Origin: an uncultured bacterium
Lineage (GTDB): Bacteria > Methylomirabilota > Methylomirabilia > Rokubacteriales > DASRDR01
NCBI GenBank assembly: GCA_964416315.1
Contig: CAYQDR010000004.1
Span: 17,147 to 81,146 of the forward strand
Length of the DNA stretch: 64,000 bases
Reading direction: 5' to 3'
Part shown: one piece after another, positions 3,425 to 59,572 of the stretch
Position numbering within the stretch: position 1 is the first letter of the stretch
Layout: each line of letters starts with the position of its first letter
Notes under the pieces: generated by a model
The model's database searches: none
Told to the model about the DNA's origin: nothing
What the model saw: only the letters and a program-made list of their open reading frames with translations
Program-made: the position numbers and the translations under genes

Positions 3425-3475
3425 CCGGAGACCCTCGCCCCGACCCTCTCCCTGGACGGGAGAGGGAATGACCCG

Positions 3476-3531
3476 ATGCAGACGTTCGTCCAGCTCCTGA
3501 TCGGCGGGATCCTCCAGGGCGGGATCTACGC
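3476..3531 (+). repeat. 56-bp direct repeat, copy 1 of the livH 5' end (ATGCAGACGTTCGTCCAGCTCCTGATCGG...)
   Basis: Matches 4363..4418 with one mismatch. Preceded by the strong SD GGGAGAGGGAA. Confidence 0.9.
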
Positions 3532-3969
3532 CGGCCGGTGGCCTTCGAGGAACGGGTTGACCGCGCGCACCGCCCCGTAGACACGGTCGTGTTGGAAGTC
3601 CTCGGAGCACAGTTCGGCCAGCCCGTACTCCTCCGCGTACGCCCACAGGTGGGCGTCGAACCAGTCGAGCTGGTACGTCGCCCAGCCCCGGATCGCCGTG
3701 CGCACCAGGTTCTCGGTCGGATAGAGCACGACGAACTGCGTCAGCAGTTCCTCGGCCTCGCGCCGCGCGTCGGCCGGCGAGAGCAGCGGCTCGCCTCCAT
3801 CCAGAGGTCGCGTGACGGCCGCCACGAACTCGACGATGCCTTGGTGCGGGATGCGCACGCTGTCCTCGAGGAGCCCGCGACGCAGGAGACCGGTGGCAAT
3901 CTCCTGCTTGGCGGGAAACCGCGGGTCGAAGCGGTAGACGAGGACGTTCGTGTCAACGAGCGCGGCCAC
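3526..3969 (-). CDS. vapC: PIN-domain toxin VapC
   Basis: GTG start, N-terminal VDTNVLV motif, conserved acidic residues, ~147 aa. Overlaps the end of the upstream antitoxin gene. Confidence 0.8.
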   Translation of the reverse strand: MAALVDTNVLVYRFDPRFPAKQEIATGLLRRGLLEDSVRIPHQGIVEFVAAVTRPLDGGEPLLSPADARREAEELLTQFVVLYPTENLVRTAIRGWATYQLDWFDAHLWAYAEEYGLAELCSEDFQHDRVYGAVRAVNPFLEGHRPA

Positions 3970-4240
3970 GGTCGTAGAGCTCCTGGCGACGCCACCCGCG
4001 CCCCTGGGCGGTGCGCGATGGGCGCCGCTCAGCCTCGCGCCGCCGCTGGCGCTCCGTCGCCGCGTCGAAGAGTCGGGCCCTCGCCGCAACATCGAGCGTA
4101 GAGGCGCGCCTGCCGGCGGGCAGGACCCGGATGGCGTCCCCGGCGGGGACCCACTCGATCTGGTCCCCGGGGCGGATACCGTACTGCTCGGCGATGGCTT
4201 TCGGGACCGTGACCTGGAGCTTGCTCGTGACTTTCGCCAT
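3953..4240 (-). CDS. vapB: AbrB/MazE (SpoVT_AbrB)-type antitoxin VapB
   Basis: MAKVTSKLQVTVPKAIAEQYGIRPGDQIEWV swapped-hairpin motif, 95 aa. Lies immediately upstream of and overlapping vapC. Confidence 0.75.
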   Translation of the reverse strand: MAKVTSKLQVTVPKAIAEQYGIRPGDQIEWVPAGDAIRVLPAGRRASTLDVAARARLFDAATERQRRREAERRPSRTAQGRGWRRQELYDRGRAR

Positions 4241-4362
4241 GTCCTTACTCTAGCAAGGACGAAATCCTTGTCAAGAGCCGGCGCGACCCCGGAGCGAGGA
4301 TCGAGTCGGCGACCGGCGGCGGTCTATGACGCCGGTCGCTGCGCGTGGTAGGCTCCTGGCCC

Positions 4363-4418
4363 ATGCAGACGTTCGTCCAGCTCCTGATCGGGGGGATCCT
4401 CCAGGGCGGGATCTACGC
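4363..4418 (+). repeat. 56-bp direct repeat, copy 2 (the actual livH start)
   Basis: Matches 3476..3531. Confidence 0.9.
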
Positions 4419-22945: not shown

Positions 22946-22972
22946 CCGGCCGCCGGCGGAGCGGCGGGCCGA

Positions 22973-23233
22973 GTGCTGCGGGTGCGCCTCCGCCAGACAG
23001 ACCCCCGCTACGCACCGTTCGTGGATCGCGCGACGGAGCGCGAGGTGCTCGGGCTCAGAATGTCGGTGGCTGCGCTGGACGACGTGCTCCAGGGGAAGCT
23101 CTGGGCGGTGACCGACCCTGAGCGTCGCCCGAGCAAGCGTCAGAAGGACCTCGCCGACATCGCGCGGCTCCTGGAGGGCCACCCCCACCTGCGCGACCGG
23201 GTGCCCGCGGAGGTCCTCGCCCGCCTCATCTGA
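22973..23233 (+). CDS. hypothetical protein (possibly a C-terminal gene fragment)
   Basis: 86-aa ORF. Not confidently assigned to any family. Confidence 0.25.
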   Translation: MLRVRLRQTDPRYAPFVDRATEREVLGLRMSVAALDDVLQGKLWAVTDPERRPSKRQKDLADIARLLEGHPHLRDRVPAEVLARLI

Positions 23234-24017: not shown

Positions 24018-24132
24018 ACGTTGAGGGGCGCCGACGACCCCACCGGAGGGGCGGGACGCCCGCGAGGTCGCAGGCCGAGCGCGTCCCGACGAGCTGGAGG
24101 ACGCCGGGATGCGACGGTTATCGGCCCGGCGC

Positions 24133-24864: not shown

Positions 24865-24946
24865 GCGGGAAGGCGCGCCCAGTATAGCAGGGCCTGCCGG
24901 GCTGGTCTCCTTGACAGCCGTTCCGCCCGCCCGCTACCGTGAGCCC

Positions 24947-25828
24947 GTGATCCCGGCCCTCATCGCCCAGGGCGGCGCCGGGGCGGACCCCGGCGAGCAC
25001 GCGAGCTACCGCGAGGCGCTGCGGGCGGCGCTCGCCGCCGGCTGGGCGCGCCTTCGGACGGGCGCCTCCGCCCTCGACGCCGTCGAGGCGTGCGTCGCGG
25101 CGATGGAGGACGACCCGCGGTTCAACGCCGGCCACGGCTCCGTGCTGACCGAGGCGGGCACGGTCGAGTGCGACGCCTCGATCATGGAGGGCGGGCGCCT
25201 CGGCGCGGGGGCGGTCGGCGCCGTCGCCGGCGTGCCGCATCCGATCACCCTCGCACGCCGCGTCCTCGAGGACGGGCAGCACATCCTCCTGGTCGGCGAG
25301 GGGGCGCTCGCGTTCGCGCGCGAGCGCGGCGTCCCGCTCTGCGACCCGGCCGCCCTCGTGATCGAGCGCCAGCGGGCGCGGCTCGCCGAGCACCTGGCGG
25401 GACGGAGCCCGGTCCCCGCGCCCGGCGGGACCGTCGGGGCCGTCGCCATCGACGCGCGCGGGCTGATCGCGGCGGGGACCTCGACGGGCGGGCGCGTCGG
25501 CAAGCGCGCCGGCCGCGTCGGGGACTCGGCCCTGATCGGCGCCGGCACCTACGCCGACAACCGCCTCGGGGGCGCCTCGACGACCGGACACGGCGAGGCG
25601 TTCATCCGCACGGTCCTCGCCAAGACCGCCCTCGACATCCTCAAGGATCTCGACGACCCCGAGACCGCCGTCCACGTGGCGATGGACGTCCTCCGGGAGG
25701 ACGGCGGGGGCGACGGCGGGCTCGTCCTCATGGACTGGCGGGGGCGGCTCGGCTTCGCCCACACGACGCCGTTCATGCCGGTCGGCTGGTGCCTGCCTGG
25801 CGCCGCGGAGCCGCTCCTCGGGTTCTGA
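24947..25828 (+). CDS. iaaA: isoaspartyl peptidase/L-asparaginase (Ntn hydrolase)
   Basis: GTG start. GTVGAVAID and TSTGG motifs. The upstream in-frame extension overlaps livG antisense. Confidence 0.8.
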   Translation: MIPALIAQGGAGADPGEHASYREALRAALAAGWARLRTGASALDAVEACVAAMEDDPRFNAGHGSVLTEAGTVECDASIMEGGRLGAGAVGAVAGVPHPITLARRVLEDGQHILLVGEGALAFARERGVPLCDPAALVIERQRARLAEHLAGRSPVPAPGGTVGAVAIDARGLIAAGTSTGGRVGKRAGRVGDSALIGAGTYADNRLGGASTTGHGEAFIRTVLAKTALDILKDLDDPETAVHVAMDVLREDGGGDGGLVLMDWRGRLGFAHTTPFMPVGWCLPGAAEPLLGF

Positions 25829-25834
25829 GCGCCG

Positions 25835-25927
25835 TTACTTCACGATCATCACGGTGCAGGGCGCCAGCCGGCTCAGGCTCTGCGTTGTGCTCCCCATGAT
25901 CCGTCCCCAGATGTAAGCGGTTTCCAT
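25835..25927 (-). CDS. 30-aa small ORF (METAYIWGRIMGSTTQSLSRLAPCTVMIVK) downstream of the Cys-rich gene
   Basis: ATG 11 nt after the Cys-rich gene stop. GAGGG 4 nt upstream. GC3 26/30. Confidence 0.25.
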   Translation of the reverse strand: METAYIWGRIMGSTTQSLSRLAPCTVMIVK

Positions 25928-25938
25928 TCAGCCCTCGC

Positions 25939-27108
25939 TCAGTCCGCCGCGCCCGATCGCCTCCCGTCGTCAGGCGCTTTCTCCGACGGTGGCTCGTACT
26001 TGGCCAGGCGGGCCTTCAACTGCTCGATCTCGGCGCGGAGGTCGCGCACCACTGCTTCCCAGGTCTGGGCCGCCGCTCGCTCGCCGGCGAGGTTCATCTC
26101 GAGGACCTGCCGATCCTCGCTCACCGACCAGAGGCGGTAGTGGAGCGCCGAGGCCCGGCTGGATTCATCGCCGAGCTGCTGGGTCAGCTCCCGGAGCCGC
26201 AGCTCGAGCCGCCCCTTCTCGAAGGCGAGGGCCTCGAGGCGCTCCCGCACCGCCTCGGCCGACTCGGGGGGGCCTGCCCCCGGCTCCCGCGGGCTCAGCG
26301 AGCCCGGGGCCGGGGGAGTCGGCGCGAAAGATCTCGGGATCTCGTTTCCGAATAGCTCCCTCCAGCCGACCAAGAACGTCAGCGCCGCCGTCCACGACGC
26401 CGCCTCCTCGGGCGTGAAGGGCGCCTGCTTCCGGTAGTCGTGCTTGTCGATGAACTCCCGAAGGTCCCTGGCGAGCCGGTCGAGCTTGCGTAGCGTTCGC
26501 GCGACGAGAGGGGCAGCGCCGTGATGCCCGGCGTAGTGCCCGAGGGCCAGCGTCAGGTGCTGAAGGCAGAGCCCATCCGACCGGTCGTAGGCTCGGTCCA
26601 ACTCCGCATCCTCGATGTAGTCGAGCAGCGTGTGGAGGTAGCCGTCCTCGGCGCTCGCCAGCGCGGTGCAGAGAGGACAGCGCGCTCGGTTCGCCCGCGC
26701 CTGGACGAGCCCGACCGGCTCGGCTCGGCGGAAGAGGCGCCGCCATCCCCTAACGATCCGGGAGCCGCTCAGCTCCCGGTGCGTCACACTCAACCACGCC
26801 CGCACTTGGCCGAGGAGACCCTGGTAGATAAGCCCGATCCCGAGGGCACTGTTCCGGACGTCCGTGGACATCCACGCGTGCCAGCTACAGAAGCCCCACG
26901 ACCGATCGAGTACGGCTCGGGTCCCCGGATCGTTCACCTGCTCGTACAGGAGCGCGTCCAGCGACCGGACGGTCAACTCGCGGAGACAACGGCAGACCGG
27001 ACACCCCGGCTTCCCGCACGCGTCCACCAGGTGGAAGTACGCGATGAACTTGCTCGGGCGAGCCTCGGGACGCCAGCCCAGGTCTCTCAGCAACCGGTCG
27101 AGGTCCAC
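25939..27108 (-). CDS. Cys-rich (putative zinc-binding) protein with C-terminal coiled coil, hypothetical
   Basis: CGKPGCPVCRC, CSWHAW, CPLCTAL, CLQH motifs. Heptad-rich C-terminus. GTG start 21 nt after the GTPase stop. Confidence 0.7.
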   Translation of the reverse strand: MDLDRLLRDLGWRPEARPSKFIAYFHLVDACGKPGCPVCRCLRELTVRSLDALLYEQVNDPGTRAVLDRSWGFCSWHAWMSTDVRNSALGIGLIYQGLLGQVRAWLSVTHRELSGSRIVRGWRRLFRRAEPVGLVQARANRARCPLCTALASAEDGYLHTLLDYIEDAELDRAYDRSDGLCLQHLTLALGHYAGHHGAAPLVARTLRKLDRLARDLREFIDKHDYRKQAPFTPEEAASWTAALTFLVGWRELFGNEIPRSFAPTPPAPGSLSPREPGAGPPESAEAVRERLEALAFEKGRLELRLRELTQQLGDESSRASALHYRLWSVSEDRQVLEMNLAGERAAAQTWEAVVRDLRAEIEQLKARLAKYEPPSEKAPDDGRRSGAAD

Positions 27109-27129
27109 CTGCCTCTTCCCTCTCTCGCG

Positions 27130-28839
27130 TCAAGCCGGGCGCTCAACCCCCGGATGCAGCGCGAGGACGCGCTCGCGGAGGGACTCGAGGCGCGACAGCT
27201 CGGCGCGAACCGCCTCGGCGCCGGCCACGTGGCGGTCCCGTGCCCGTCGCAGCGCGCGCTCCGCCGAAGTCGAGAGCCCACGCAGGAGGGATACGATCTC
27301 CGATTCGAGTCGGCGCCGGTCTTCGGCCGCACGGTCGACGAGGTCGTTGGACACCCGAGCGCTGTTCGTGACGAGAAGCCGTTCGAGGTAGCGGCGAGCG
27401 TCCTCCCGGGCAGCCACGATCGCCCGTCGGCGCGGACGCAGCAGCGTCGCCAACCGCCCTCCGGGACGCGGGCTCGCGACGGTGAGGAGGTCGTGAAAGT
27501 AGAAACGACGCTTCGCTCGAAACGTGGTCTCCCCCACGAGCTCGCCGGACAATCGGGCGAGTGTCGGGTCGCCGGAAGTTCTCAAGCGCGCCAGGAATGC
27601 GTTAGCCCCTTCGATGAACCGTCCGGTCGCACGACGATAGAGCTCCTCGGCCCTCGGCTCGACATCCCGCAGCCACTCCTCGATGACCCGGCGGGCGATC
27701 CCTCGGGCGAGCTCCATCGCGCGGTCTCGCACCCCTCGCTTCGCCCGTGCGTCCCCGCCCATGAGGGCCCGGTCGAGCTCGCCCAGCGCTGCCGGGAGGG
27801 CTCGCGCGACGCAGGCGCCACGCTCGGCGTCGAACGCGCTCACCAGGTCGGCCTGTGCGGCGGCCAACAACGGCCGGATGTCCGCGAGGGTGCGCTCGGC
27901 GTCCGCGATGCTCCGTCGGAGCTCCGCGATCCGGTCGTCGAGCGGGCGCAGGAGCGCCTCCCGGTGCTCGTCGATCGCTCGGAGTAGACGGCCCGCCACG
28001 CGGCTGACGCCGCGGGTGGCCGCCGCCCGCAGGAGTTCGACGCCCGAATCGCGGGCGAGCGCCTCCAGCTCCGCCTCGAGTGCCTTCCAATCCCGCGTGA
28101 TCTGGCCGGACAGCCGCTCGGCCGCGCTGACCTCGAGGAACTCGACCGGTCGGGAGAGCCGTCTCGTGAGCAGCGCCTCCGCGAATTGGCGAGCCTCCTG
28201 ACGGTCGGCATCGGACAGGCGATCGGCCTTGCTCAGCACGAAGATGAGCCGCTCGGTCTGCCGCGCCACCTCCTCCACCAGGGCCAGCTCCTCTCCGGAA
28301 AGCGGAGGATCGGCGCCCAGGACAACCAGCGCGGCGTCCACGTGGGGGACGAAGTCGCGTGCAATCTTCGTGCTGGCAGAAAACACCGATCCGATGCCCG
28401 GGGTGTCGACGAAGCACATTCCAGACGCGAGCAAGGGGCTCGGAACGAAGACTTCGACGCCCTCGACCCGCTTCCGGTTCTCGGGGTTCTGCCCTTCGGT
28501 CACGTACGCTGCCAGCGCCGCCGGATCGATTTCCTCCCACGCGGAGCCGGCGCGTCGGACGCGCGCCGCGCGACGCGGCCCGTGTCTGACGACCGTCAGC
28601 ACGGCCGTCACGGGCACGACGCCGGTCGGGAGCAGAGGGTCGCCGATGAGCGCGTTGAGAAGCGTGGACTTGCCGCGCTTGAACTGACCAGCGCACGCGA
28701 CGAACGAGCGCCCCTCGGCCAGCCGCTCGGCGAGCGACTGTCCCTCAGCGGCCAGTTCGTCCGCGCCGACGTCGGCCGCGACCTCGACGAGCTGGCGCAG
28801 GACCTCCGTGAACTCGGCGTCGGCAGGCGGCTGGAACAA
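27130..28839 (-). CDS. bacterial dynamin-like GTPase (dynamin family, BDLP/DynA/LeoA-like)
   Basis: G1 GQFKRGKSTLLNALIG, G2 PVT, G3 DTPG, G4 SKAD. About 570 aa from TTG 28839. The upstream 90 codons of the track ORF are R/S-rich junk that overlap pup. Confidence 0.75.
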   Translation of the reverse strand: MFQPPADAEFTEVLRQLVEVAADVGADELAAEGQSLAERLAEGRSFVACAGQFKRGKSTLLNALIGDPLLPTGVVPVTAVLTVVRHGPRRAARVRRAGSAWEEIDPAALAAYVTEGQNPENRKRVEGVEVFVPSPLLASGMCFVDTPGIGSVFSASTKIARDFVPHVDAALVVLGADPPLSGEELALVEEVARQTERLIFVLSKADRLSDADRQEARQFAEALLTRRLSRPVEFLEVSAAERLSGQITRDWKALEAELEALARDSGVELLRAAATRGVSRVAGRLLRAIDEHREALLRPLDDRIAELRRSIADAERTLADIRPLLAAAQADLVSAFDAERGACVARALPAALGELDRALMGGDARAKRGVRDRAMELARGIARRVIEEWLRDVEPRAEELYRRATGRFIEGANAFLARLRTSGDPTLARLSGELVGETTFRAKRRFYFHDLLTVASPRPGGRLATLLRPRRRAIVAAREDARRYLERLLVTNSARVSNDLVDRAAEDRRRLESEIVSLLRGLSTSAERALRRARDRHVAGAEAVRAELSRLESLRERVLALHPGVERPA

Positions 28840-28846
28840 CTCGTGC

Positions 28847-29047
28847 CTATTCTCCGCCGCGCTGGACGTAGCTCTTGACGAACTCCTCCGCATTCTCCTC
28901 GAGGACGTCGTCGATGTCTTCGAGAATCTCGTCGAGGCCCTTCTTGAGCGCCCTGCCCTTCTCGGCGACCCTCGGGTTACCCCCGGGCGCTTCGCTCTCC
29001 GTCTCCGGCGTGACTGGCCGCTTGATCTGGCGATCCTGCTCGGCCAT
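28847..29047 (-). CDS. pup: prokaryotic ubiquitin-like protein Pup (GGE C-terminus)
   Basis: 66 aa. ...LDEILEDIDDVLEENAEEFVKSYVQRGGE closely matches the conserved Pup C-terminal helix and di-Gly terminus. SD GGGAGG 6 nt upstream. Confidence 0.8.
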   Translation of the reverse strand: MAEQDRQIKRPVTPETESEAPGGNPRVAEKGRALKKGLDEILEDIDDVLEENAEEFVKSYVQRGGE

Positions 29048-29075
29048 GGCGCACCTCCCGAGGCGCGTGCGCGGG

Positions 29076-29112
29076 AAACAAAAACTCCTACCGGCCCGAG
29101 TCCAGTAGGAGT
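29076..29112 (-). terminator. intrinsic terminator (8-bp stem ACTCCTAC/GTAGGAGT, 13-nt loop, TTTTTGTTT)
   Basis: Seen on the minus strand, downstream of the antiporter gene and within the 5' leader of pup. Confidence 0.5.
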
Positions 29113-29166
29113 CATCAGCTGCCCCGGCGGCAGCGGTTTAGAGGGCGAACTCCATCGCCCGCGTTT

Positions 29167-49239: not shown

Positions 49240-51087
49240 ATGGTGGATCCCAAGACGGCCGACCAGGCCCTGCAGACGTACGTCCGGCCGCAGACGTTCC
49301 CCGTGGCCATCCGGATGCTCCGCGCGGACGAGCCGATCCCCGAGCGGGCCAAGCGGCCCGCACGCGACTTCGGCAAGCTCTCGATGAACTGCCAGGTCAT
49401 CGACATGGCGCGGCGCTACGGCTGGATGATCGCGCTGACGCGCGACGACCACATCTGCTCGCTCGGCATCACGGCGTTCGGCTTCGACCGGCCGACGCAC
49501 CTGTACGCCTCGGGGACGCTCTGCGAGGGCATGTACACGGAGACCCGGGAGGCGGGGGCGCGCTCGGAAGCCGCGGTGGACAAGTTCGCCCCGGGCGAGT
49601 ACGCGTGTCTCCTCGTCTGCCCGCTCGACCGCTGCACGTTCGAGCCCCACCTCGTCGTCGTCTACGCGAACCCGGCCCAGGTGATGCGGCTCACGCAGGC
49701 GGCGCTCTGGAAGCGCGGCGGGCGGCTCACCTCCTCGTTCCAGGGCCGGATCGTGTGCGCGGACATCGTCGTCACGACCATGCAGACGGGCGAGCCCCAG
49801 GTGATCCTCCCGTGCTCCGGCGACCGGATCTTCGGCCAGACCCAGGACCACGAGATGGCGTTCACGATCCCCTGGGGGAAGATGGGCGAGATCATCGAGG
49901 GGCTCGAGGGGACACACAAGGGCGGGATCCGCTATCCCATCACCCAGTTCCTCGAGTACGAGGCGAAGCTCCCCCCGCGCTACATGGAGGTCAACCGGCT
50001 CTGGGACGTCGAGAAGGGGAAGGCGCACTACACCGGGCGCGACCGGGTGGTGGCCGCGTACAAGCGCTCGTACGCCGACCGCGTGCCCGTGTACCCGATC
50101 GTGGCCTCGTTCGCCGGGACGCTCGACGGCCTCTCGATCGAGGAGTTCTGCACGACGCCGTCGAAGGCGGTCAAGGCGATGCTGAACTACGCCGAGCGCT
50201 ACCAGCCCGACGTCGTGCTCGCCTACAACGACCTCGCCAAGGAGGCCGAGGCTACGGGGTGCAAGGTCAAGTACTCCGACTACGTCGTCCCCTCGATCGA
50301 GACCCACGTCCTCCAGGAGGATAAGGGGCGACTCGCCAAGCTCGAGATCCCGGACCCCGCGAAGGACGGCCGGCTGCCGGCGTTCCTCGAGGTCTGCGAG
50401 GGGCTGATGGCGGCGAAGCTCCCGATGGCGACCGGCGCCGTGGCCGTGGGCCCGTGGACGATCGCCATGCTCATGCGCAACCCCGAGGTCATGCTGCTCG
50501 AGACCTTCGAGGACCCGGGATTCATCCACGAGCTGATGCGCTTCACGACCGAGTTCTGCAAGCGCTGGGGCGACGCGATCGTGAAGACCAAGATCGGGCT
50601 CAGCTTCTCCGAACCCACCGCCTCGATCAGCCTCATCTCGCCCGACAACTACCGGGAGTTCATCGCCCCCTACCACAAGGAGCTGGTCGAGTACTTCAAG
50701 GCGAAGAAGGTCGGGCTCACGACCCACATCTGCGGGACGACCTACCCGATCTACGAGGACCTGATCCAGTGCGGCTTCACGACCGTCTCCTTCGATCTCG
50801 ACCAGCAGGCCGACCCGAAGCTCAGGGTGGACCAGCTCGCGCGCTTCATGGACGTGGCGAAGAAGCGCGTGGTCGCCATCGGAAACGTGGACGCCACGCT
50901 CTTCGAGCGCGCCACACAGGCCGAGATCGAGGCCGAGGTGCGCCGCTGCGTGGACGCGGCCGCGCGCCACTCCGCCTGGATCCTCTCCACCTCCTGCGAG
51001 ATCCCGCCGCGCTCCAAGCCCGAGATCGTCCAGTGGTTCATGGACGCGGCGCGGGAGTACGGCCGCTACGAGCGCTTCATGAGCTGA
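49240..51087 (+). CDS. fusion protein: N-terminal DUF169 (COG2043) plus C-terminal URO-D-family (MtaA/CmuA-like) methyltransferase/decarboxylase domain
   Basis: DUF169 Cys pattern (NCQ...DHICSLG...C.DIV..TMQTG..QVILPCSGDR). URO-D-like C-terminal region. Confidence 0.7.
   Translation: MVDPKTADQALQTYVRPQTFPVAIRMLRADEPIPERAKRPARDFGKLSMNCQVIDMARRYGWMIALTRDDHICSLGITAFGFDRPTHLYASGTLCEGMYTETREAGARSEAAVDKFAPGEYACLLVCPLDRCTFEPHLVVVYANPAQVMRLTQAALWKRGGRLTSSFQGRIVCADIVVTTMQTGEPQVILPCSGDRIFGQTQDHEMAFTIPWGKMGEIIEGLEGTHKGGIRYPITQFLEYEAKLPPRYMEVNRLWDVEKGKAHYTGRDRVVAAYKRSYADRVPVYPIVASFAGTLDGLSIEEFCTTPSKAVKAMLNYAERYQPDVVLAYNDLAKEAEATGCKVKYSDYVVPSIETHVLQEDKGRLAKLEIPDPAKDGRLPAFLEVCEGLMAAKLPMATGAVAVGPWTIAMLMRNPEVMLLETFEDPGFIHELMRFTTEFCKRWGDAIVKTKIGLSFSEPTASISLISPDNYREFIAPYHKELVEYFKAKKVGLTTHICGTTYPIYEDLIQCGFTTVSFDLDQQADPKLRVDQLARFMDVAKKRVVAIGNVDATLFERATQAEIEAEVRRCVDAAARHSAWILSTSCEIPPRSKPEIVQWFMDAAREYGRYERFMS
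50858..51087 (+). repeat. 230-bp direct repeat, copy 1 (native 3' end of the DUF169/URO-D gene)
   Basis: 100% identical to 58797..59014. The last ~12 bp diverge. Confidence 0.9.
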
Positions 51088-51453
51088 CGGACCGGCGCCG
51101 CCCGGTGCGCTGCGTCTCTCCCACGCGACGCACGGCACGTGCCGGAACGGTGGGACAGGATCGAGATCGTCCGGAAAGGAGGTGGCAGCTTGAAGTGGAT
51201 CGTGGCCGATCCGGCCCCTCCTCGTGGAGCACGGCGGCGACCTGGGCGGGGTTCAGCCCCTCGAGGACGGGGGCGGCGGATCGGCAGGGTCGGGCGCGCG
51301 GCGGGCCCCCGGGGGTCGACGGCCATCGCCCGGATCACAGCCCCGCCGCGGAGCGCACAACCGGCCCCGTGCGCCTGGAGCCGTCGCGCCCCACGCGCCG
51401 AGAGCGGGGCAGCGGGTGTAGCGTGGGGCCGTGCCGTGATGCGGCGCGCTGAC

Positions 51454-51858
51454 CTACCGACCGAGCCGCAACCGTTCCCAGCAACCGCGCGGATCCACGA
51501 TGGGCACAGGGGCCTGGCCTGCCACGTCGAGAAGATCCTGGTCACCCGTCACCAAGAGGTCCGCGCCCGCCGCGATCACCGACGCTAACACCCACCGGTC
51601 GTCAGGATCACGAACCGGGATAGCCGACGGGTGCCCGGGCCTCGGCACCACTGTCTGGGCCCGCAATTCTGCCTCCACCGCGCTTATCTGCTCCGCCGAA
51701 GCGTGGAACTGGTCCCCCAGCACCCGCCGCAGCTCCTCAAGGTTGACCTCGCCCGTGAGAAGCTCGTGCTCAGCCAGGATGAAACGAACGAGATCGGCGC
51801 TGATTCCGCGGGCCGTGTAGGCGCTCACAAGAACGTTGGTGTCCAGGAAGATCCTCAC
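51454..51858 (-). CDS. vapC: PIN-domain toxin VapC
   Basis: VRIFLDTNVLVSA... GTG start overlapping the antitoxin stop. Confidence 0.8.
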   Translation of the reverse strand: MRIFLDTNVLVSAYTARGISADLVRFILAEHELLTGEVNLEELRRVLGDQFHASAEQISAVEAELRAQTVVPRPGHPSAIPVRDPDDRWVLASVIAAGADLLVTGDQDLLDVAGQAPVPIVDPRGCWERLRLGR

Positions 51859-52076
51859 GACACGATGCGAAACACATCCTCGTCGGTCAGGATCCCCTGG
51901 GCCTCCGCCAGCGGCAGCAGGGCGCGGCGCGAGCGCTCGAAGCGCAGCAGCGCGATCTGGCGACGAAGCGCGTCGCGCACGACCTCGCTGCGGCTGCGCC
52001 CGAGCTGGCGGCACAGCCGATCCAGTTCGCGCTGGAGCTTCGCATCCAGCCGGATGGTGACGGTGGCGGCCTTCAT
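51855..52076 (-). CDS. vapB: ribbon-helix-helix (CopG-type) antitoxin VapB
   Basis: MKAATVTIRLDAKLQRELDRLC... 73 aa. Confidence 0.75.
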   Translation of the reverse strand: MKAATVTIRLDAKLQRELDRLCRQLGRSRSEVVRDALRRQIALLRFERSRRALLPLAEAQGILTDEDVFRIVS

Positions 52077-52230
52077 GTAAGACAATGTACTATGAAACCG
52101 CCCCTGGCGCCAGCGACTCGTCCGCGACGCCCGCCCCGACGATGTCCGCCTTCTGGGTCAGGTGGCCGTGATGGGTGAGCGCGAGCGTCTCCTGGGCGTT
52201 CTGCTCGACCGAGAAGATGTCGTGCCCTGG

Positions 52231-52560
52231 CGATCGGAAACGTGGACGCCACGCTCTTCGAGCGCGCCACGCAGGCCGAGATCGAGACCGAGGTGCGCCG
52301 GTGTGTGGACGCAGCCGCGCGTCACTCCGCCTGGATCCTCTCCACCTCCTGCGAGATCCCGCCGCGCTCCAAGCCCGAGATCGTCCAGTGGTTCATGGAC
52401 GCGGCGCGGGAGTACGGCCGCTACGAGCGGTTCATGACGTAGGCGGCGACTCGCCCTCGCCCGCCTCGGCGGGCGGGGGCGGGGCCTGCGCGGCTGCGGG
52501 CGCCTCGGGCTGGGCGCCCTCCGCAGGCGGTGGAGCCGCGGGGGGCCGCTGGGGTTCTGC
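52231..52560 (+). repeat. direct repeat copy 2 (URO-D 3' end, ~96% identical, plus ~120 bp of shared downstream sequence)
   Basis: Aligns to copy 1 with ~8 substitutions. The tail matches 59027..59150. Confidence 0.85.
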
Positions 52561-52675
52561 CAATGGTGACGAGGTCGAGGTCGACATCTTTCGCCGTCGC
52601 CGTCCTCCGCAACCCCGTCCAGTCGCTCAGGATCGGCTTCGCGGGGTTGAGCGAACCAGTGTTCGGCGCGGAACC

Positions 52676-52705
52676 CGGACTCTCACACTGAGAGTCCCGG
52701 TGTCG
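52676..52705. repeat. inverted repeat CCCGGACTCTCA-cac-TGAGAGTCCCGG (hairpin)
   Basis: 12-bp arms with one mismatch. Intergenic, upstream of the modE-like gene. Confidence 0.4.
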
Positions 52706-52827
52706 GGGAGCTCGCTCGCCCCGACGCGGGACCGGGCCGTCGACCCCTGCTGGCGGCGTCGCGGTCACTCCTGCACGCGCCCTGACTACTCGAAACCAGG
52801 TCCACCTTGCGGTTTGGGGTCGGTATC

Positions 52828-53166
52828 ATGGGGGGCGTGCTGAAGCCGAGGCTCAAGGTGTGGGTCGTCCTCGGGGAGCAGGTCAAGTTCGGGGACGGCC
52901 GGGCCGAACTCCTCGAGCGGATCGAGACCCTGGGGTCGCTGAAGCAAGCGGTCGCCGGAATGGGCATGTCGTACCGTGCGGCCTGGGGCTACCTCCGGGA
53001 GCTCGAGCGCGCCGCCGGGTTCAAGTTCCTGGAGCGCCATCCCGGTCGCGGGAGGACGCGGCTTACCGCGGAGGGGAAGCGGTTCCTTGAGCGCTACCGC
53101 CGGTTCCGAAGGGGCCTGGACGCCGCAGTCGCCCGCCGCTTCAGGCGGTCGTTCCCCCGGAAGTAG
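52828..53166 (+). CDS. ModE N-terminal-domain-like wHTH regulator (molybdate-responsive type, no Mop domains)
   Basis: GSLKQAVAGMGMSYRAAWGYLRELE...GGRGRTRLTAEGKRFLERY matches the ModE HTH pattern. Confidence 0.6.
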   Translation: MGGVLKPRLKVWVVLGEQVKFGDGRAELLERIETLGSLKQAVAGMGMSYRAAWGYLRELERAAGFKFLERHPGRGRTRLTAEGKRFLERYRRFRRGLDAAVARRFRRSFPRK

Positions 53167-53194
53167 CGACTCGCCTGTCTGTTTTTTTGGCGTT

Positions 53195-53225
53195 GATTAT
53201 GCTCTGCGAAGCATATATAAGAATC
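53195..53225 (+). promoter_or_regulatory. AT-rich element GCGAAGCATATATAAGAATCG (candidate ModE-type operator/promoter)
   Basis: The only AT-rich 30-mer in the region, between the regulator and transporter genes. Confidence 0.25.
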
Positions 53226-53269
53226 GTGTCAACCCGCGGGCGTCGCGTGGATCACCGGGGCACGCCCAG

Positions 53270-54400
53270 ATGCGGATCGGCGGAAACGACTACACGCTCC
53301 AGGAGCTGGCCGGGGCCTTCGGGGACCTCGGGACGCTGATCCCGTTCCTCGTGGGGTACATTACCATCACCGGGATGAACCCCGTGGGCATCCTCGTGGC
53401 CTTCGGCCTGTTCAAGATCTTCGCGGGACTCTACTTCCGCTCGCCCATCCCGATCCAGCCGATGAAGGCGATCGGCACCGCGGCGATCAGCCACCCGGGG
53501 ATCATCACGCCCGGTGCGGTCTGGGCGTCGGGGTTCTTCACCGGCGCGCTTTGGCTCGCCCTCGGCCTCACCGGGGCCGTGACGTGGATCGCCAGGCTCA
53601 CGAGCCGGCCGATTGTCCAGGGCCTCGTCCTCGGCCTCGGGCTCGGCTTCATCTTCGAGGGCGTCAAGATGATGGAAGCCGATCTCCCGCTCGCCGTGGC
53701 GGCGAGCGCCCTCACGTTCGTCCTGCTCTCCCGCGAGCGGGTCCCGGCGATGCTTGGCCTCCTGGCCTTCGGCGTGGCGGTCGCGTTGGTCCGGGAGCCG
53801 CGCCTCCTCGAGGAGCTCGGCCGCCTCTCGTTGCGCCTGCGGCTCCCGGAGCTGGCCCTCATGAAGCTCGGCTGGACGGACCTCGTCACCGGGGTCGTGG
53901 TCCTCGGGCTTCCCCAGGCCGCGCTGACCCTGGGCAACGCCATCGTCGCGACCGTCGAGGAGAACAACGCGCTGTTCCCCGAGCGGCCGCTCACGGTCCG
54001 AACGGTCGCGATCGATCACGGGGTCATGAACCTCGTCGGCACGACGCTCGGCGGGGTCCCGATGTGTCACGGCGCCGGGGGGCTCGCGGGCCACGTGCGC
54101 TTCGGGGCCCGGACCGGCGGGGCCCTCGTGATCCTCGGGTGTCTCGTCCTCTTCACGGGGCTCTTCCTCGCCGACTCGGTGCAGACGCTCTTCAAGGTCG
54201 TCCCGCCGGCGCTCCTCGGCGTGATCCTGATGTTCGGCGGGCTCGAGCTCGCCGCCGGGGTCCAGGGGAACCACTGGTCGAAGGAGGACCGTTACGTCAT
54301 GGTCCTGACGGCCGGGGTCTCCCTCTGGAACATGGGCGCCGGCTACGCGGCCGGGCTCCTCCTCTGGCATGCGTTTCGGCGGGGGTGGCTCAAAGCTTGA
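53270..54400 (+). CDS. MOT1-family (sulfate/molybdate transporter-like) membrane transporter
   Basis: [27 protein letters not shown]-terminus. Multi-TM. Confidence 0.65.
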
Positions 54401-55124
54401 CGGCGAGCTGATCCTCCACCGCGGCAGGGCGGCTCGGCGGGCGGCCGACCGTGATCCGCCCGTCGATCATGTGGTAGACGCGGTCGAAGCCCTCGATCAT
54501 CCGGTCATCGTGGGTGACCACGATCACGGCTGCCTGCCGCTCCCGCCCGAGGCGTCGGAGCAGATCCATCACCGCCTTGCCGCGCTCCGTGTCGAGGGAC
54601 GCCGTCGGCTCGTCCGCGAGGATCACGGTCGGCTCGTTGACCACGGCCCGCGCGACGGCCAGGCGCTGCTGTTCCCCGCCGGAGAGCGTTGCCGGGTACA
54701 CGTCCGCCCGGTGACCGAGATCCAGCCGATGCAGGAGCGCCCGAGTCCGCCGCCGCGCCTCGCGCCCCGGGACGCCATTCAGGGTGAGAATCAGCGCCAC
54801 GTTCTCCACAACGGTGAGGAACGGGATCAGGTTGTAGGCCTGGAAGACGATCCCGATCTTCTCCCGCCGCAGGCGCCGATCGTCAGCCCGGACTTGCTTG
54901 CCGTCGTACACGAGCTCCCCGGCGATGGTGATCCGTCCCCGGGTCGGTGGATCGATGAGCGAGATGGCCCGGAGGAGGGTGGTCTTCCCGGATCCGCTCG
55001 GCCCCATGAGGGCGACCAGCTCCCCGCCCCCCACGGCGATGCTGGCGTCCTGGAGTGCCACGACTTCCGTCTCCCCGCGCCCGAACACCTTGGTGAGGTG
55101 CTCCGCGACAATCGCCGGCATCAT
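54390..55124 (-). CDS. ABC transporter ATP-binding protein (MacB/LolD-like)
   Basis: [28 protein letters not shown] overlap with the permease stop. Confidence 0.8.
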
Positions 55125-56317
55125 GCCCCGCCCCCCAGGGCCGTGGTCGGGTCCACGCGGATCGCCTTCCAGATGCCCAGCGCGCTGGCGACGAGGCAGA
55201 TCACTCCGACGATCCCGAGGAGGATGAGCTGGTCGGATGCGACGATGAGGAGCCGTCGTGGAAAGTATTGATAGGTCCGGCTGATGAGGAGCGCGCCCAG
55301 CCCGTAGCCGAGCAGGCCGAGCACGACGGCTTCCTGCACCACGAGCCCGGCAATCTTCCGATCGGGCGCGCCGAGGATCTTGAGCGTCGCGATGTCGCGC
55401 GTCTTCTCCAGCGTCATCGTGTAGATGATGAGGGCGATGATGACGACCGACACGATCAGGAGGATGGTCCGCATCAAGAGGGTCTGCTGGCGCCCCCGCT
55501 CGATGACCACCCTCGCCAGCACGGCCTCCTGCTCGTCGGCCGTCATCGCCCGGTAGTGGTTCCACCGCTCGATCCGCCGCGCCGCCTCGCCGGGGTCCGC
55601 CCCGGGTTGCAGGCGAACCAGCACGGCGTTGGCCAAGTGGGTGTTCTGGACGATCGGCCCGAGCGCGGCGGGAGACACGGAGGCCAGGGCCGGCTCCACC
55701 TTCAGGGTGGCGTCCAGGCGCGCCCGATCGTTGCGCACCGCTTCATTGGCCTTCAGGAACTGGATCTCCTGCGCGTCCTGGAGCGAGACATAGGCGACGG
55801 GGTCGCCGGCGTTCGACACGATCCCCTCGGTCAGCCCGACGATGGTGAAGAGCAGGCGACCGATGCGGATCTCGGCCCCGACGGGCAGGCCGGCCTCGCG
55901 GCCGATCACCATCTCGTACCGGCTCCGCAGGATCGGTCGGCCGGCTACCACGGCGGACGGCCCTCCCAGGCCGTCCAGCCGGTATCCGATCAGCTGGACT
56001 CGAAACGGCTTGGGCCCCACGCGGAACTGGAGCACCTGGAAGGCCACCGGGCTGGCTTCTCGGACTCCAGGCACGCCCCGGATCATCCGATACACATCGT
56101 CGGGGATCCGCGAGGTCTCGGCGAAGGGGCCGTTGGTGTCCTTCTGCACGACCCACAGGTCGGCGCCGGAGCTCCGGAGGATGCTGAGAGCCTCCACGAC
56201 CAGCCCCTGATAGACCCCGCCCATCGCCATGACCGAGGCGAGGAGGAGCCCCAGGCCGAGGGCCGTCAGCAGGAAGCGGCCGAGGCGGTAGCGGACGTCC
56301 CGCAGGGCGAGGTTCAT
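55121..56317 (-). CDS. ABC transporter permease (FtsX/MacB-type)
   Basis: Large periplasmic loop plus a C-terminal FtsX 3-TM domain. ATGA overlap with the adaptor stop. Confidence 0.8.
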
Positions 56318-57744
56318 CGCGGCGTCCGCGCCGCGTCCGTCGCCATGTCCGCTCGGACGACCCGCACCCGGCGCCCGTCGTTCGCGGCATCGGCGAGGCG
56401 GCCAGGCGTGAGCACGACCAGCGTCCCCGGGCGGAGGCCCTCCAGCACCTGCACCCATCCCGCCGGGTCGGCGGCGCCGAGGCGCGCCGCCTGGAAGTGG
56501 AGGCGGCCGTCCGTGACCACGAGGGCGCCCGGTCCGTCCGGTCGACGCACGACCGCCGCCAGCGGGAGGGCGACCGCGCCCCGCTGGGCGGGGGGCCGGA
56601 TGTCGGCCTCCGCTTGCTCGCCCAGGGTCAACCGGAGCGGGCGCGTCTCCAGGGCGATGTCCACCGCCAACTGCTCGGTGACGCGATCGCTCTCCCGCTG
56701 GATCCGCGCCACGCGGCCGGGAACCCGTCGGCCCGGCTGTGAGCGGAGCGTGATTTCGGCAGGGTCCCCGACGGCCAGGCCGCCCGTGTCTCGTTCATCC
56801 ACATACACCGTGACCCACGCCGTCTCGGGGTCGGCGATCTTGAAGATCGGCGTTCCGGGGTTCACCGTGCTGCCGGGTTCGAGCTCCCGGCTGACCACGT
56901 ATCCGGTGAAGGGGCTGACCACGGCCGTATCGGCCACCTGCGCCTGGGCCACCGCCACCGCTGCCTGAGCTTCCCGCACCTGCGCGCGCGCTGCCGCCAC
57001 CTGCTCGGGACGGGGGCCGGCCAGCACGAGGTCGAGCCGCTGCTGGAACGCGGTCAGTTGGTGGCGCGCGGCGGTGATCTGGTCGGTCCGGGCGCCGTCG
57101 AGCGCCAACCGCAGCGTCTGCCGCGCCCCGCGCTCCTGCGCGGCCGCGACCTCGTACGCCTGCCGCGCCCGGTCCAGGTCCTGCGCGGCGATCAGCTCGC
57201 GGGCCCAGAGGCCCTGCATGCGCTGCAGGTCGCGCTCCGCCAGGATCCGCGTGGCGGTGGCGCTCTTGAGTCGCTCCTGGAGCTCTTCGATTTCAGGGGG
57301 CCGAGAGCCCGCCCGGAGGTCATCGAGCTGGGCCTGGGCGTGCGCGACATTGGCGCGTGCCTCCGCGACCTCCTCCGAGCGGGCGCCGGCGAGGAGGTCG
57401 CGCAGCTGAGCCTCCGCGGCCCGCAGGGCGGCGTCCCGTCGGCGCACCTCGGCGCGGATCTCTGCATCGTCCAGACGCGCCAGGATCTGCCCGGGTTCGA
57501 CCGCGTGGCCCTGGTCGACCAGGACGGTGACGAGCCGCCCGGTGATCTTGGCGCCGACTTGCACCACCACCTTGGCCTCAACCGTCCCGACGCCCTGGAC
57601 GGCGGGCGCGACGTCCCGGACGCTCACCTCGGCGACCTGGACCGACGGCGGGCGGAGCAGGAACCACCCCCCGACGGCCACCGCGAGGAGAACAGCCCCG
57701 CCGAGGGCTCCCCGGACGCCACGCTTGAGCCAGCGTCGATCCAT
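56314..57744 (-). CDS. HlyD-family periplasmic adaptor (efflux membrane fusion protein)
   Basis: TM anchor, long coiled coil, barrel-sandwich hybrid domain. ATG 57744. Confidence 0.8.
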   Translation of the reverse strand: MDRRWLKRGVRGALGGAVLLAVAVGGWFLLRPPSVQVAEVSVRDVAPAVQGVGTVEAKVVVQVGAKITGRLVTVLVDQGHAVEPGQILARLDDAEIRAEVRRRDAALRAAEAQLRDLLAGARSEEVAEARANVAHAQAQLDDLRAGSRPPEIEELQERLKSATATRILAERDLQRMQGLWARELIAAQDLDRARQAYEVAAAQERGARQTLRLALDGARTDQITAARHQLTAFQQRLDLVLAGPRPEQVAAARAQVREAQAAVAVAQAQVADTAVVSPFTGYVVSRELEPGSTVNPGTPIFKIADPETAWVTVYVDERDTGGLAVGDPAEITLRSQPGRRVPGRVARIQRESDRVTEQLAVDIALETRPLRLTLGEQAEADIRPPAQRGAVALPLAAVVRRPDGPGALVVTDGRLHFQAARLGAADPAGWVQVLEGLRPGTLVVLTPGRLADAANDGRRVRVVRADMATDAARTPR

Positions 57745-58087
57745 GCCCCAGCTACCCGCCTCGGAAACCACAGCAACCCGCTTGCCAGAGCGCCGCCGAC
57801 GCGAGAATGATGAGGTTCGACGGTGGGTTGCGTCACCCGCCCAGCACGCTGTCCCGTGTCCGGGTGGGGCGTGGCTGCCCCACTCGGGACGAGGCGCCTC
57901 CTTCGCGCCCTCGCGACGGCGCGCCGCCGCCCACGGTTTCGAGGATGGCTCGCTGTCGGCTTGCGGCGACGCGGGCCGGCTGGCCACGCCGGGCCACGGC
58001 GGGAACGCCCGTGCGGGAAGAACAGATAGCGCTGACCGGGCGCGTGCCCGATACTGACTTCTGACCCTGACGCGACAGGAGGGCGCG

Positions 58088-58762
58088 ATGAAGCGAGGAG
58101 TGGTGATCGGAATCACGGCCGTCGGCCTCGGCGTGGCGCTCGTGGCCGGCGTCGTCCTGGCCCAGCAGCCGGCCTCACCAGGCGGCGGCACGGCGCCGCG
58201 CCAGATGGGGCCCGGCATGATGCCCCATGGCGTGATGCCGCACGGCCAGATGCCCCACGGCCCCATGATGCCGAGCGGGGCACCGGCAGCCGCCGGCGTG
58301 CCCACCTTGCCGGGCCAGGACGCCTTCGGCGCCATTGCGGAGATCGTGCGGCTCCTCGATGCGGACCCGCAGACCGACTGGAGCAAGGTCGACCTCGAGC
58401 GGCTGCGTCAGCACCTCATTGACATGAACGAGGTCGTGCTCCGCGCTGAGGTGAAGGCGAGCGCCGTGCCGGGCGGTCTCGCGACGGACGTGAACGGGAT
58501 CGGTCGGACGGAGCAGGCGATCCGGGCGATGGTGGTGCCGCACGCCGGGGAGCTCGATCAGACGCCGGGGCTCGCGGCGAAGACGGAGATCATCCCGGGT
58601 GGCGTGCGCCTCACGGTGACGGCGCGGGACCCCGGGGACGACAAGACGGTGGCGCGGGTCCGTGGCCTGGGCCTCATCGGTCTCCTGACGCTCGGCGCCC
58701 ACCACCAGCCGCACCACCTCGCGATGGTGCGCGGCGAGGCGATGAGCGGCCACGGCCACTGA
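58088..58762 (+). CDS. secreted Met/His/Pro-rich protein (MPHGVMPHGQMPHGPMMP repeats), putative Cu-binding
   Basis: Signal peptide and M-x-H repeats. 224 aa. Confidence 0.55.
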   Translation: MKRGVVIGITAVGLGVALVAGVVLAQQPASPGGGTAPRQMGPGMMPHGVMPHGQMPHGPMMPSGAPAAAGVPTLPGQDAFGAIAEIVRLLDADPQTDWSKVDLERLRQHLIDMNEVVLRAEVKASAVPGGLATDVNGIGRTEQAIRAMVVPHAGELDQTPGLAAKTEIIPGGVRLTVTARDPGDDKTVARVRGLGLIGLLTLGAHHQPHHLAMVRGEAMSGHGH

Positions 58763-58796
58763 CCGTGCCGCGTCTGGGGCCCACGCCGGACGCGGG

Positions 58797-59150
58797 GCCA
58801 GAAGCGCGTGGTCGCCATCGGAAACGTGGACGCCACGCTCTTCGAGCGCGCCACACAGGCCGAGATCGAGGCCGAGGTGCGCCGCTGCGTGGACGCGGCC
58901 GCGCGCCACTCCGCCTGGATCCTCTCCACCTCCTGCGAGATCCCGCCGCGCTCCAAGCCCGAGATCGTCCAGTGGTTCATGGACGCGGCGCGGGAGTACG
59001 GCCGCTACGAGCGGTTCATGACGTAGGCGGCGACTCGCCCTCGCCCGCCTCGGCGGGCGGGGGCGGGGCCTGCGCGGCTGCGGGCGCCTCGGGCTGGGCG
59101 CCCTCCGCAGGCGGTGGAGCCGCGGCGGGCGGCTGGGGCTCCGCCGGTTC
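58797..59150 (+). repeat. direct repeat copy 3 (URO-D 3' end, identical to copy 1, plus shared downstream sequence)
   Basis: 58797..59014 equals 50858..51075. 59027..59150 matches 52443..52560. Confidence 0.9.
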
Positions 59151-59405
59151 CGGGCGGGGCCGCGCCGCGCGAGGGGCGGCGGCCTTCCGCTTGGGGGGCG
59201 CCTCGCTCGCCGCCGGGCCGCGTGCGCCCGCCGGGCCGCCCCGCTGCATCTCGGCGATGACCCAGGGCGCGACCCGCGTCAGCTTCTGGACCACGGCGGC
59301 GCGCTCGGCGTCGCTCTCGGCCGCCTCGTAGCGCCGCCGCAGCTTCGCGAGCTTCTGCCGCCGCACGCGGCGTCGATGCAGCTCCGTCTTCCGTTGCACT
59401 GGCAT
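59016..59405 (-). CDS. small basic protein with Pro/Ala-rich disordered tail, hypothetical
   Basis: SD GGAGG 7 nt upstream. GC3 above 85%. The 3' end overlaps repeat copy 3. Confidence 0.55.
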   Translation of the reverse strand: MPVQRKTELHRRRVRRQKLAKLRRRYEAAESDAERAAVVQKLTRVAPWVIAEMQRGGPAGARGPAASEAPPKRKAAAPRAARPRPEPAEPQPPAAAPPPAEGAQPEAPAAAQAPPPPAEAGEGESPPTS

Positions 59406-59572
59406 GCCCGGTCCTCCTCGCGGCGCGCTGGTGTCGCCGGATCCAGACCCCTTCTAGCACGGCGCCGAAACCCGGGTCAAACCCGGGAGGGGGGTGTCCC
59501 CCGGGGGGGTTGCCCTTGACGCGCGGTCCCCGGCCCGCCTAGACTGCCGGCAGATCGCACCACCGTCATCCC

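Follow-up and report, generated by a model that had tools for sequence, protein, structure and literature searches.

The 64,000-nt stretch of uncultured Rokubacteriales DNA considered here (the window, to which all coordinates refer unless another locus is named) contains at 51088-52230 a segment in which vapB and vapC, an antitoxin gene and a toxin gene, are the sole intact genes. The segment lies between the first two of three copies of the 3' end of a gene for a DUF169 + URO-D fusion protein, called gene X in the following. The gene pair, the copies and the features between them are arranged along the DNA in this order:

49240..51087, + strand: gene X, DUF169 + URO-D fusion, 615 aa (Pfam: URO-D E=5e-61, DUF169 E=2e-57)
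50861..51087, + strand: repeat copy 1, the functional 3' end of gene X, with CGCTTCATGAGCTGA as the tip coding for ...RFMS and the stop
51088..51435, no strand: spacer between the gene X stop and the cassette, without detectable coding remnant
51436..51453, - strand: vestige of an attC-type inverse-core box adjoining the vapC stop (flank alignment)
51454..51858, - strand: vapC, PIN-domain toxin, 134 aa, intact (PIN_3, PIN, TIGR00305)
51855..52076, - strand: vapB, ribbon-helix-helix (CopG-type) antitoxin, 73 aa (RHH_1)
52084..52112, - strand: predicted vapB promoter, conserved in the family (flank alignment of ~30 homologous loci)
52113..52232, no strand: ~120 nt between promoter and copy 2, ending at the putative illegitimate junction 52230-52233
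52233..52561, + strand: repeat copy 2, displaced 3' end of gene X (remnant open reading frame (ORF) of 66 aa, ...RFMT and the stop) plus 116 nt of a DUF6800 3' end
52562..58799, no strand: second insert, 6.2 kb long, separating copy 2 from copy 3 (Pfam)
58800..59145, + strand: repeat copy 3, a gene X 3'-end fragment that runs into the intact convergent DUF6800 gene
59016..59405, - strand: DUF6800 gene, intact, convergent

The vapBC pair and the repeated ends of gene X

VapC matches the PIN_3 (E=5e-13), PIN (E=2e-9) and TIGR00305 (40.3 bits; cut-off 29.15) profiles, and VapB matches the Pfam profile RHH_1 (E=2e-11). The antitoxin gene comes first, and the vapB stop and the vapC start of the co-oriented genes overlap in the GTGA at 51855-51858. 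An initial annotation of this DNA, made without database searches, had described vapB and vapC, with their 4-nt overlap, as the only genes between copies 1 and 2; its coordinates and content were re-verified. A metagenome scan for VapC relatives gave 80 loci, in 75 of which a VapB homologue stands beside VapC. The closest VapC relatives, from uncultured organisms, are 81-82% identical in amino acid and 77% identical in nucleotide sequence. The four acidic residues of the PIN domain, D6, E42, D87 and D106, are all present in the window protein, each of them at least 95% conserved in an alignment of 51 sequences (the window VapC and 50 homologues). The window VapC retains every residue conserved at that level and breaks the 90% consensus at one position only. 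Comparison with eight relatives gives dN/dS of 0.08-0.18 for VapC and 0.03-0.14 for VapB, rough values with dS near saturation. The pair is a vapBC module with both genes intact. Exact-protein look-ups of VapC, the DUF6800 protein and a dynamin-like ORF of the window found none of them on record.

The promoter architecture in ~30 homologous loci is -35 TTGCNN, 17 nt, -10 TACAnT, 7 nt and ATG. Its counterpart in the window has -35 TGGCGC (52107-52112), a 17-nt spacer and -10 TACATT (52084-52089) ending 7 nt before the ATG, with one -35 mismatch and no TGn; a strict scan of the region for the generic sigma-70 consensus and for terminators called neither this promoter nor anything else. The vapB start region has no Shine-Dalgarno sequence, either in the window (52077-52112, - strand) or in the ~30 loci, and the short distance between the -10 box and the vapB ATG implies that the vapB mRNA would be leaderless. 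As read from these features, vapBC is a minimal type II toxin-antitoxin (TA) cassette with a predicted promoter of its own and is apparently functional.

The three copies of the gene X end have a common core of 107 identical nt (50968-51074 and its equivalents), and their outer boundaries differ in every copy. With offsets counted from 50875 (copy 1), 52230 (copy 2) and 58814 (copy 3), copies 1 and 3 are identical from -14 to +199 (214 nt; 50861-51074). Copies 2 and 3 are identical from +93 to +311 (219 nt; 52323-52541), with the homology fading by +331, and the tail that they share is the 3' end of the convergent DUF6800 gene. Copy 2 differs from copies 1 and 3 at six positions, +41, +57, +71, +74, +83 and +92 (52271-52322). 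Five of these private substitutions are synonymous and one is non-synonymous (p~0.005, with 25% synonymous sites expected under neutrality), and none of the six lies beyond the first 90 nt of an alignment of more than 300 nt (calculated chance <0.001). The tip of copy 1, CGC TTC ATG AGC TGA (RFMS, stop), is the consensus of relatives L005-L013, while copies 2 and 3 end in CGG TTC ATG ACG TAG (RFMT, stop), one base from relative L003. Both tips, as judged by comparison with these relatives, are genuine gene X ends. The five synonymous differences and their clustering argue that the first part of copy 2 was shaped within the working gene X of another lineage, and copy 2 thus appears to derive from another functional gene X allele. 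The tracts of 100% identity end exactly at the limits of the available homology, which fits gene conversion within one genome. Copies that come from different functional alleles point to recombination with related DNA and not to integrase att sites, and the most likely reading of the repeats is that of displaced gene ends and not of target-site duplications.

Gene X was surveyed in 80 species-representative Rokubacteria/Methylomirabilota genomes, whose orthologues are 79-92% identical to it in amino acid sequence. In ~60 of these relatives a convergent RRM-protein gene lies 200-450 bp after gene X, and in the closer clade a TPR gene is next after gene X, sometimes with a 360-aa gene before it. 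Within 10 kb of gene X, all 80 lack vapBC, the spacer, the DUF6800 gene, the ModE/MOT1/MacB/HlyD cluster and any further gene X end. Throughout its length, 51088-59572 is therefore lineage-specific, and the comparison identifies vapBC behind gene X as an insertion in one Rokubacteria lineage. The content of the spot downstream of gene X varies, and 10 or more relatives have unrelated inserts of 0.7-5 kb there. At one of the surveyed loci (L057, 8129-8332) an unrelated VapB-like ORF lies downstream of gene X. The long-read metagenome-assembled genome (MAG) CAWGVS01 has two gene X copies on different contigs (L006 and L011), 88% and 87% identical to the window protein. They may be paralogues or reflect a mixed bin, and they are relevant to possible intragenomic donors of gene X ends.

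The segment between copies 2 and 3 (52562-58799) encodes a ModE-like helix-turn-helix regulator, a MOT1 molybdate transporter, an ABC ATPase, a MacB/FtsX permease, a HlyD-type adaptor and a 224-aa unknown protein. It thereby includes a MacB-type ABC efflux pump with its HlyD adaptor. It is bracketed by ~330-nt repeats that include the DUF6800 3' end, and neither a TA pair nor a recombinase lies inside.

The initial annotation had regarded the 366 nt at 51088-51453 as noncoding DNA with degraded ORFs; the noncoding character holds and no homologue was found, while degraded ORFs could not be demonstrated. Neither blastn nor tblastx gave a match for this stretch in the window, the 80 gene-X loci or the 80 vapC loci, no integrase or cargo remnant was detected there, and an Rfam scan of the spacer region matched no family. 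The idea that the spacer is what is left of the 360-aa gene found behind gene X in relatives was rejected after comparison, and a source of the 1.1-kb segment elsewhere in the window was discarded as no second copy is present. On the other side, the 153 nt between vapB and copy 2 (52077-52229) consist of the conserved promoter and ~117 nt without a traced source. A minus-strand frame in 52113..52232 starts GHDIFSVEQNAQETL..., and its only family match is the LivF C-terminus (E=0.013, 15 bits). The open frame at 52090-52229, GHDIFSVEQNAQETLALTHHGHLTQKADIVGAGVADESLAPGAVS followed by a stop, gives this weak match co-linearly over LivF residues 187-230; it may be a piece of an ABC ATPase gene from the donor side, or the similarity may be due to chance. 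A LivF remnant at 52090-52229 was left unused as a candidate, since a word-based protein search and tblastn against the loci and the window were empty and the frame overlaps the conserved promoter.

The cassette family and other gene-terminus repeats

Nucleotide homology between the window and more than 60 loci is limited to 51466-52092, which is the two genes with a few flanking bases, and the neighbours vary by locus. With L084, L092 and L131 the homology extends 18-23 nt beyond the vapC stop. At 11 or more of the ~30 close loci the unit is bounded by two boxes, GTTATGCGGCGC ~20 nt upstream of the -35 element and its complement GGCGCCGCATAAC after the vapC stop, which have the core GTTATGC.../...GCATAAC; attC-type boxes are present in homologues L083, L084, L092, L104 and L109. 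Two of these loci are arrays. L104 (1-11874) has at least 15 same-orientation hairpin repeats of ~220 nt, 0.55-1.3 kb apart, and L083 (1-4677) has 6-7 copies of a 112-nt repeat in the same orientation. We take the RYYYAAC/GTTRRRY core pattern as the basis for calling such homologue arrays integron-type cassette arrays. Arrays with close vapBC homologues also occur at L109, L091, L115 and L103, and arrays of the L104/L083 type, with RYYYAAC/GTTRRRY-like ends, look like chromosomal integron arrays, with unusually long attC sites, in high-GC uncultured bacteria.

At the window locus, the box beside the vapC stop reads GTCAGCGCGCCGCATCAC where the family has GGCGCCGCATAAC, with AAC mutated to CAC, and only the 14-nt mutated box GCGCGCCGCATCAC is left. 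No RYYYAAC or GTTRRRY core occurs in 51060-51470; the best inverted-repeat partner of the vestige (12/16) was matched by 178/300 shuffles, and hairpin folding of the spacer gave z-scores of 0.5-0.9, neither of them significant. A complete attC in the spacer was ruled out on these three counts. No repeat array was found in the window. The cassette is thus one whose family occurs elsewhere in integron-type arrays, with what looks like a dead attC-like vestige as all that is left here.

Searches of phages gave no match, and plasmids gave four distant records only (including Salinibacter and Rhodothermus), with at most 57.5% identity. The genes called at 1-21.5 and 38.8-64 kb, and ten of the larger ORFs at 21-38 kb, include no integrase, transposase or tyrosine recombinase. 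The unit conserved in more than 60 loci is promoter, vapB and vapC, with or without an attC-like box. This makes the TA pair the mobile cassette itself and not a survivor, and the conservation of the unit leads us to regard vapBC as such rather than as the last cargo of a larger element. The proposal that it is the surviving cargo of a decayed insertion was not supported, neither an integrase among these genes and ORFs nor a cargo remnant in 51088-51453 having been found.

Repeated gene termini also flank another TA pair of the window:

3473..4418, - strand: first vapBC islet, AbrB/MazE-type antitoxin gene 3953..4240 and PIN toxin gene 3526..~3970

It had been noted initially that this pair (3526..4240) mirrors the pattern behind gene X, and it is bracketed by direct repeats of 59 nt (3473-3531 and 4360-4418), 97% identical, that correspond to the livH 5' end, ATG included. 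Of the two differences between the repeats, one is synonymous and one precedes the ATG. The last codons and the stop of vapC-1 are read from the antisense strand of the livH fragment, implying an illegitimate junction within the end of the toxin gene. The hyuB-livH site is empty in the MAG GCA_016196245.1 (L174, 5764-5818), where hyuB is followed by 54 nt and livH. With vapBC, spacer and repeat absent near gene X in all 80 relatives and this junction empty, the early view that both vapBC pairs are inserted and not ancestral stands. At the same hyuB-livH site, L170 (5779-7141) carries a different pair, PhdYeFM and PIN, with a 126-aa ORF, behind a decayed duplication of the livH 5' end. The hyuB-livH junction (window 3425-4359) is a TA landing spot, with a duplicated livH 5' end at both occupied sites.

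Three homologues of the cassette also have a duplicated neighbour-gene 3' end. At L093 it is 187 nt long and 86% identical, in the same convergent layout as in the window, with an excess of synonymous change (pN/pS 0.35). At L130 it is 104 nt long and 97% identical and belongs to a gene that, from its C-terminal sequence, is presumably gatB-like. At L087 it is 30 nt long and takes in the stop codon of an ABC gene. With the two in the window and L170, this gives six independent cases of a gene-terminus footprint. Compared with random 640-nt segments of the same contigs, flanking direct repeats are enriched around cassettes, both strong repeats (7/57 vs 5/278, p=0.001) and proximal ones (4/57 vs 1/278, p=0.003), in a statistic that pools attC-type repeats with gene-end duplications and in which L104 and L109 are not independent. 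Among the papers searched there was no direct precedent for TA cassettes flanked by duplicated gene termini.

Routes of arrival and retention

Taken as a whole, the locus is best explained, with a confidence slightly above even, by a vapBC cassette brought in through one-sided recombination with DNA of a related strain, anchored in gene X and displacing its old 3' end. The data show what vapBC is and that it is intact and inserted, how the repeats are built and that copy 2 diverges in an allele-like manner; from this we infer a route, an order of events and a role for addiction of the following kind. The incoming piece would have been related-strain chromosomal DNA with a gene X end, then the spacer and then vapBC. 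One end would have recombined homologously inside gene X, and the other would have been joined illegitimately at +3, inside the last ~210 nt of the resident gene X. This route is named homology-facilitated illegitimate recombination (HFIR), and a Campbell-type single crossover of a circularised fragment would give the same product, in which gene X is whole and ends in a new tip, the cassette follows and the former 3' end lies beyond it, displaced, as copy 2. The 6.2-kb transporter segment and copy 3 would go back to a similar event, and later gene conversion would have made long stretches of the three copies identical. Since gene conversion scrambled the copy mosaic, the order of the two insertions is indeterminate, and its reconstruction from the mosaic was abandoned for that reason.

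The same layout could be read as the trace of integrative elements, two integrase-dependent islands having entered in tandem at an att site in the gene X 3' end, each with the gene end in its attP, before integrases and cargo were deleted and vapBC was left. Three same-orientation copies of a gene 3' end around two accessory segments are the classic layout of tandem islands, TA-only islets that arose by streamlining are documented (PMC13617665), and the vapBC family is elsewhere tied to a site-specific recombination system through its attC-like boxes and arrays. Against this, neither segment contains an integrase, an excisionase or a remnant of one, nor do the gene calls and larger ORFs covered above, and the spacer has no detectable coding remnant. 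Moreover, the copy boundaries all differ (-14, +3; +199, +331) and do not seem to share a core, no excision product was observed, the footprint is also seen at genes unrelated to gene X and once at the 5' end of a gene, which no single att specificity accounts for, and an element with such repeats at the gene X site is present in 0/80 relatives. Decayed islands are therefore an unlikely source of the repeats. We consider about equally improbable an insertion-coupled duplication of the target in one genome, by capture at a break or a stalled fork (template switching in microhomology-mediated break-induced replication, or unequal end-joining of sister chromatids), with 30-345 nt of target duplicated and the copies diverging and exchanging afterwards. 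It would account for the first repeat-flanked insertion at a new gene, for repeat lengths that vary (30, 59, 104, 187, ~200 and ~345 nt) and for junctions near the cassette ends in every case, and the synonymous bias at L093 is moderate, near the ~0.55 expected with one copy decaying neutrally. In the window, however, five of the six differences are synonymous (calculated p~0.03 even under this model), all six lie in one 90-nt block, as in a tract derived from an allele and not as in decay after duplication, and both gene X tips are bona fide, differently diverged and matched in relatives.

An assembly or episome artefact is a still weaker candidate, and a very improbable one: the chromosome would join gene X to the copy 3 tip and DUF6800, with the 7.9-kb stretch from the spacer to the transporter segment being a circle or coming from another strain and having been threaded in by the assembler at the exact repeats. 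These repeats (214 and 219 nt) are longer than the k-mer, and contigs by themselves therefore stop short of strict proof against an empty site plus a circle of 7.9 kb. Three independent contigs (L165, L168 and L169) end inside the repeats, as expected of real repeats, and an assembly graph in which two paths enter and two leave the repeat also fits a circle plus an empty site. The window belongs to the 100-kb metagenome contig Ga0114945_10000007 of JGI 3300009444, with which k141_2045890 of the independent MEGAHIT assembly ENA ERZ27245685 was compared. The latter has the same order of gene X, copy 1, vapBC, copy 2, a ~6.3-kb segment and copy 3, and the two assemblies thus agree over the whole stretch that begins with gene X and leads into copy 3. 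No empty-site contig occurs among the 5 and 4 contigs with flanking genes. The vapB upstream region meets copy 2 at 52230-52233 without a shared repeat, and this junction must therefore exist in real DNA.

One-sided recombination with related-strain DNA remains the reading that we favour, and several points weigh against it besides the pooling in the enrichment statistic. The donor arrangement, gene X, spacer and vapBC without repeats, is found in 0/80 species representatives, and no source was found for the spacer or for the 117 nt upstream of the promoter. The 107-nt region II is identical in all copies and copy 1 equals copy 3 and not copy 2, which would require extra gene-conversion steps, and the truncated DUF6800 end on the 6.2-kb segment would require an earlier illegitimate event in the donor. 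The links across the 214- and 219-nt exact repeats depend on how the assembler resolved repeats. Finally, we know of neither natural competence nor another DNA-uptake route for Rokubacteria.

Chromosomal TA loci have an anti-deletion effect. At the present locus, if copy 1 recombined with copy 2 (107 identical nt) or with copy 3 (214 nt), vapBC would be lost and a complete gene X restored, and addiction to a functional VapBC should therefore select against this loss. Retention of vapBC by addiction is plausible on this argument, and most chromosomal TAs that were tested are addictive (PMC13617665). The six cases suggest a wider but doubtful generalisation, which we put forward tentatively: duplication of a gene terminus may be a general and as yet undescribed footprint of how minimal vapBC-type cassettes, many of them ex-integron, colonise chromosomes without a recombinase, through one-sided recombination in an anchor gene and with TA addiction keeping the repeat-flanked inserts. 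If true, this would explain the over-representation of TA pairs among tiny islets. It would also provide a simple sequence signature for recombinase-free TA acquisition and a direct test of whether addiction stabilises otherwise unstable duplications.

Other genes of the window and likeness to known systems

Several features away from the gene X locus deserve mention. A giant ORF of ~2,920-2,940 aa (11041-19860, + strand) with Glycoamylase, GH94 and GH65-C domains has the architecture of a cyclic beta-glucan or cellobionic-type phosphorylase and adjoins a GH15 glucoamylase gene. A membrane-remodelling cluster at 21222-29115 consists of genes for a flotillin-like FloA, a DUF6062 coiled-coil protein and a bacterial dynamin-like protein, between which genes for UDG and asparaginase are scattered. 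Just past the right end of the window (L167, 1-9), a ParE toxin gene lies ~10 kb beyond the RRM gene. At L173 (6823-9673), two group II intron reverse transcriptases are encoded downstream of hyuB.

It is under debate how TA pairs that have no obvious vehicle reach chromosomes and are kept there. The locus is useful in this respect, its ancestral state being known from the 80 relatives, the boundaries of its cassette being set by more than 60 homologues and its flanking repeats recording the route of recombination in their allele-like divergence and their conversion tracts. As a gene pair, it resembles other type II VapBC modules of the TIGR00305/PF13470 group in its antitoxin-first bicistron with a 4-nt overlap, its ribbon-helix-helix antitoxin, its PIN toxin with four acidic residues and its predicted own promoter upstream. 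Like VapBC modules in general, its family occurs in many unrelated contexts, including a few plasmids. It differs in that its closest relatives are 81-82% identical and come from uncultured organisms, and in a promoter geometry that would give a leaderless vapB mRNA. For TA-only chromosomal islets, a model of acquisition, streamlining and erosion has been described (Belot et al. 2026, PMC13617665), and the same study proposes that TA pairs also spread through recombination at flanking core genes and reports one duplication of a 24-bp res-like palindrome. The window pair is like these islets in that its two genes are alone in a small interval between conserved genes, at a high-turnover spot and with no adjacent mobile-element gene. 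It differs in that its flanks are duplicated termini of neighbour genes, which are not described there (PMC13617665), and in that no prior larger element is evident.

The displacement of gene ends has its own precedents. Strings of orphaned 3' ends left behind by HFIR-type displacement are known from type VI secretion system (T6SS) and Rhs loci (Kirchberger et al. 2017, PMC5361080). As in the effector-immunity displacement of Rhs, contact-dependent inhibition (CDI) and T6SS loci, a conserved anchor gene receives a new 3' end with cargo while the old 3' end is moved downstream, and as in their arrays, successive events give a string of orphaned 3' fragments with allele-like divergence. Unlike in those systems, the anchor in the window is a metabolic gene whose end is not functionally polymorphic, a TA cassette and a transporter cluster take the place of toxin tips and immunity genes as cargo, and the piece displaced at livH is a 5' end. 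The window cassette is also comparable with the TA cassettes of sedentary chromosomal integrons, since its close homologues have core boxes and lie in same-orientation arrays. Here, on the other hand, there is neither an array nor IntI, the box is a mutated 14-nt remnant only, and the flanking repeats are gene ends and not attC. The window locus is thus most likely an ordinary vapBC islet that arose by HFIR-type displacement, both of which are kinds already known, and the recurrence of its footprint at other genes is a modest lead.

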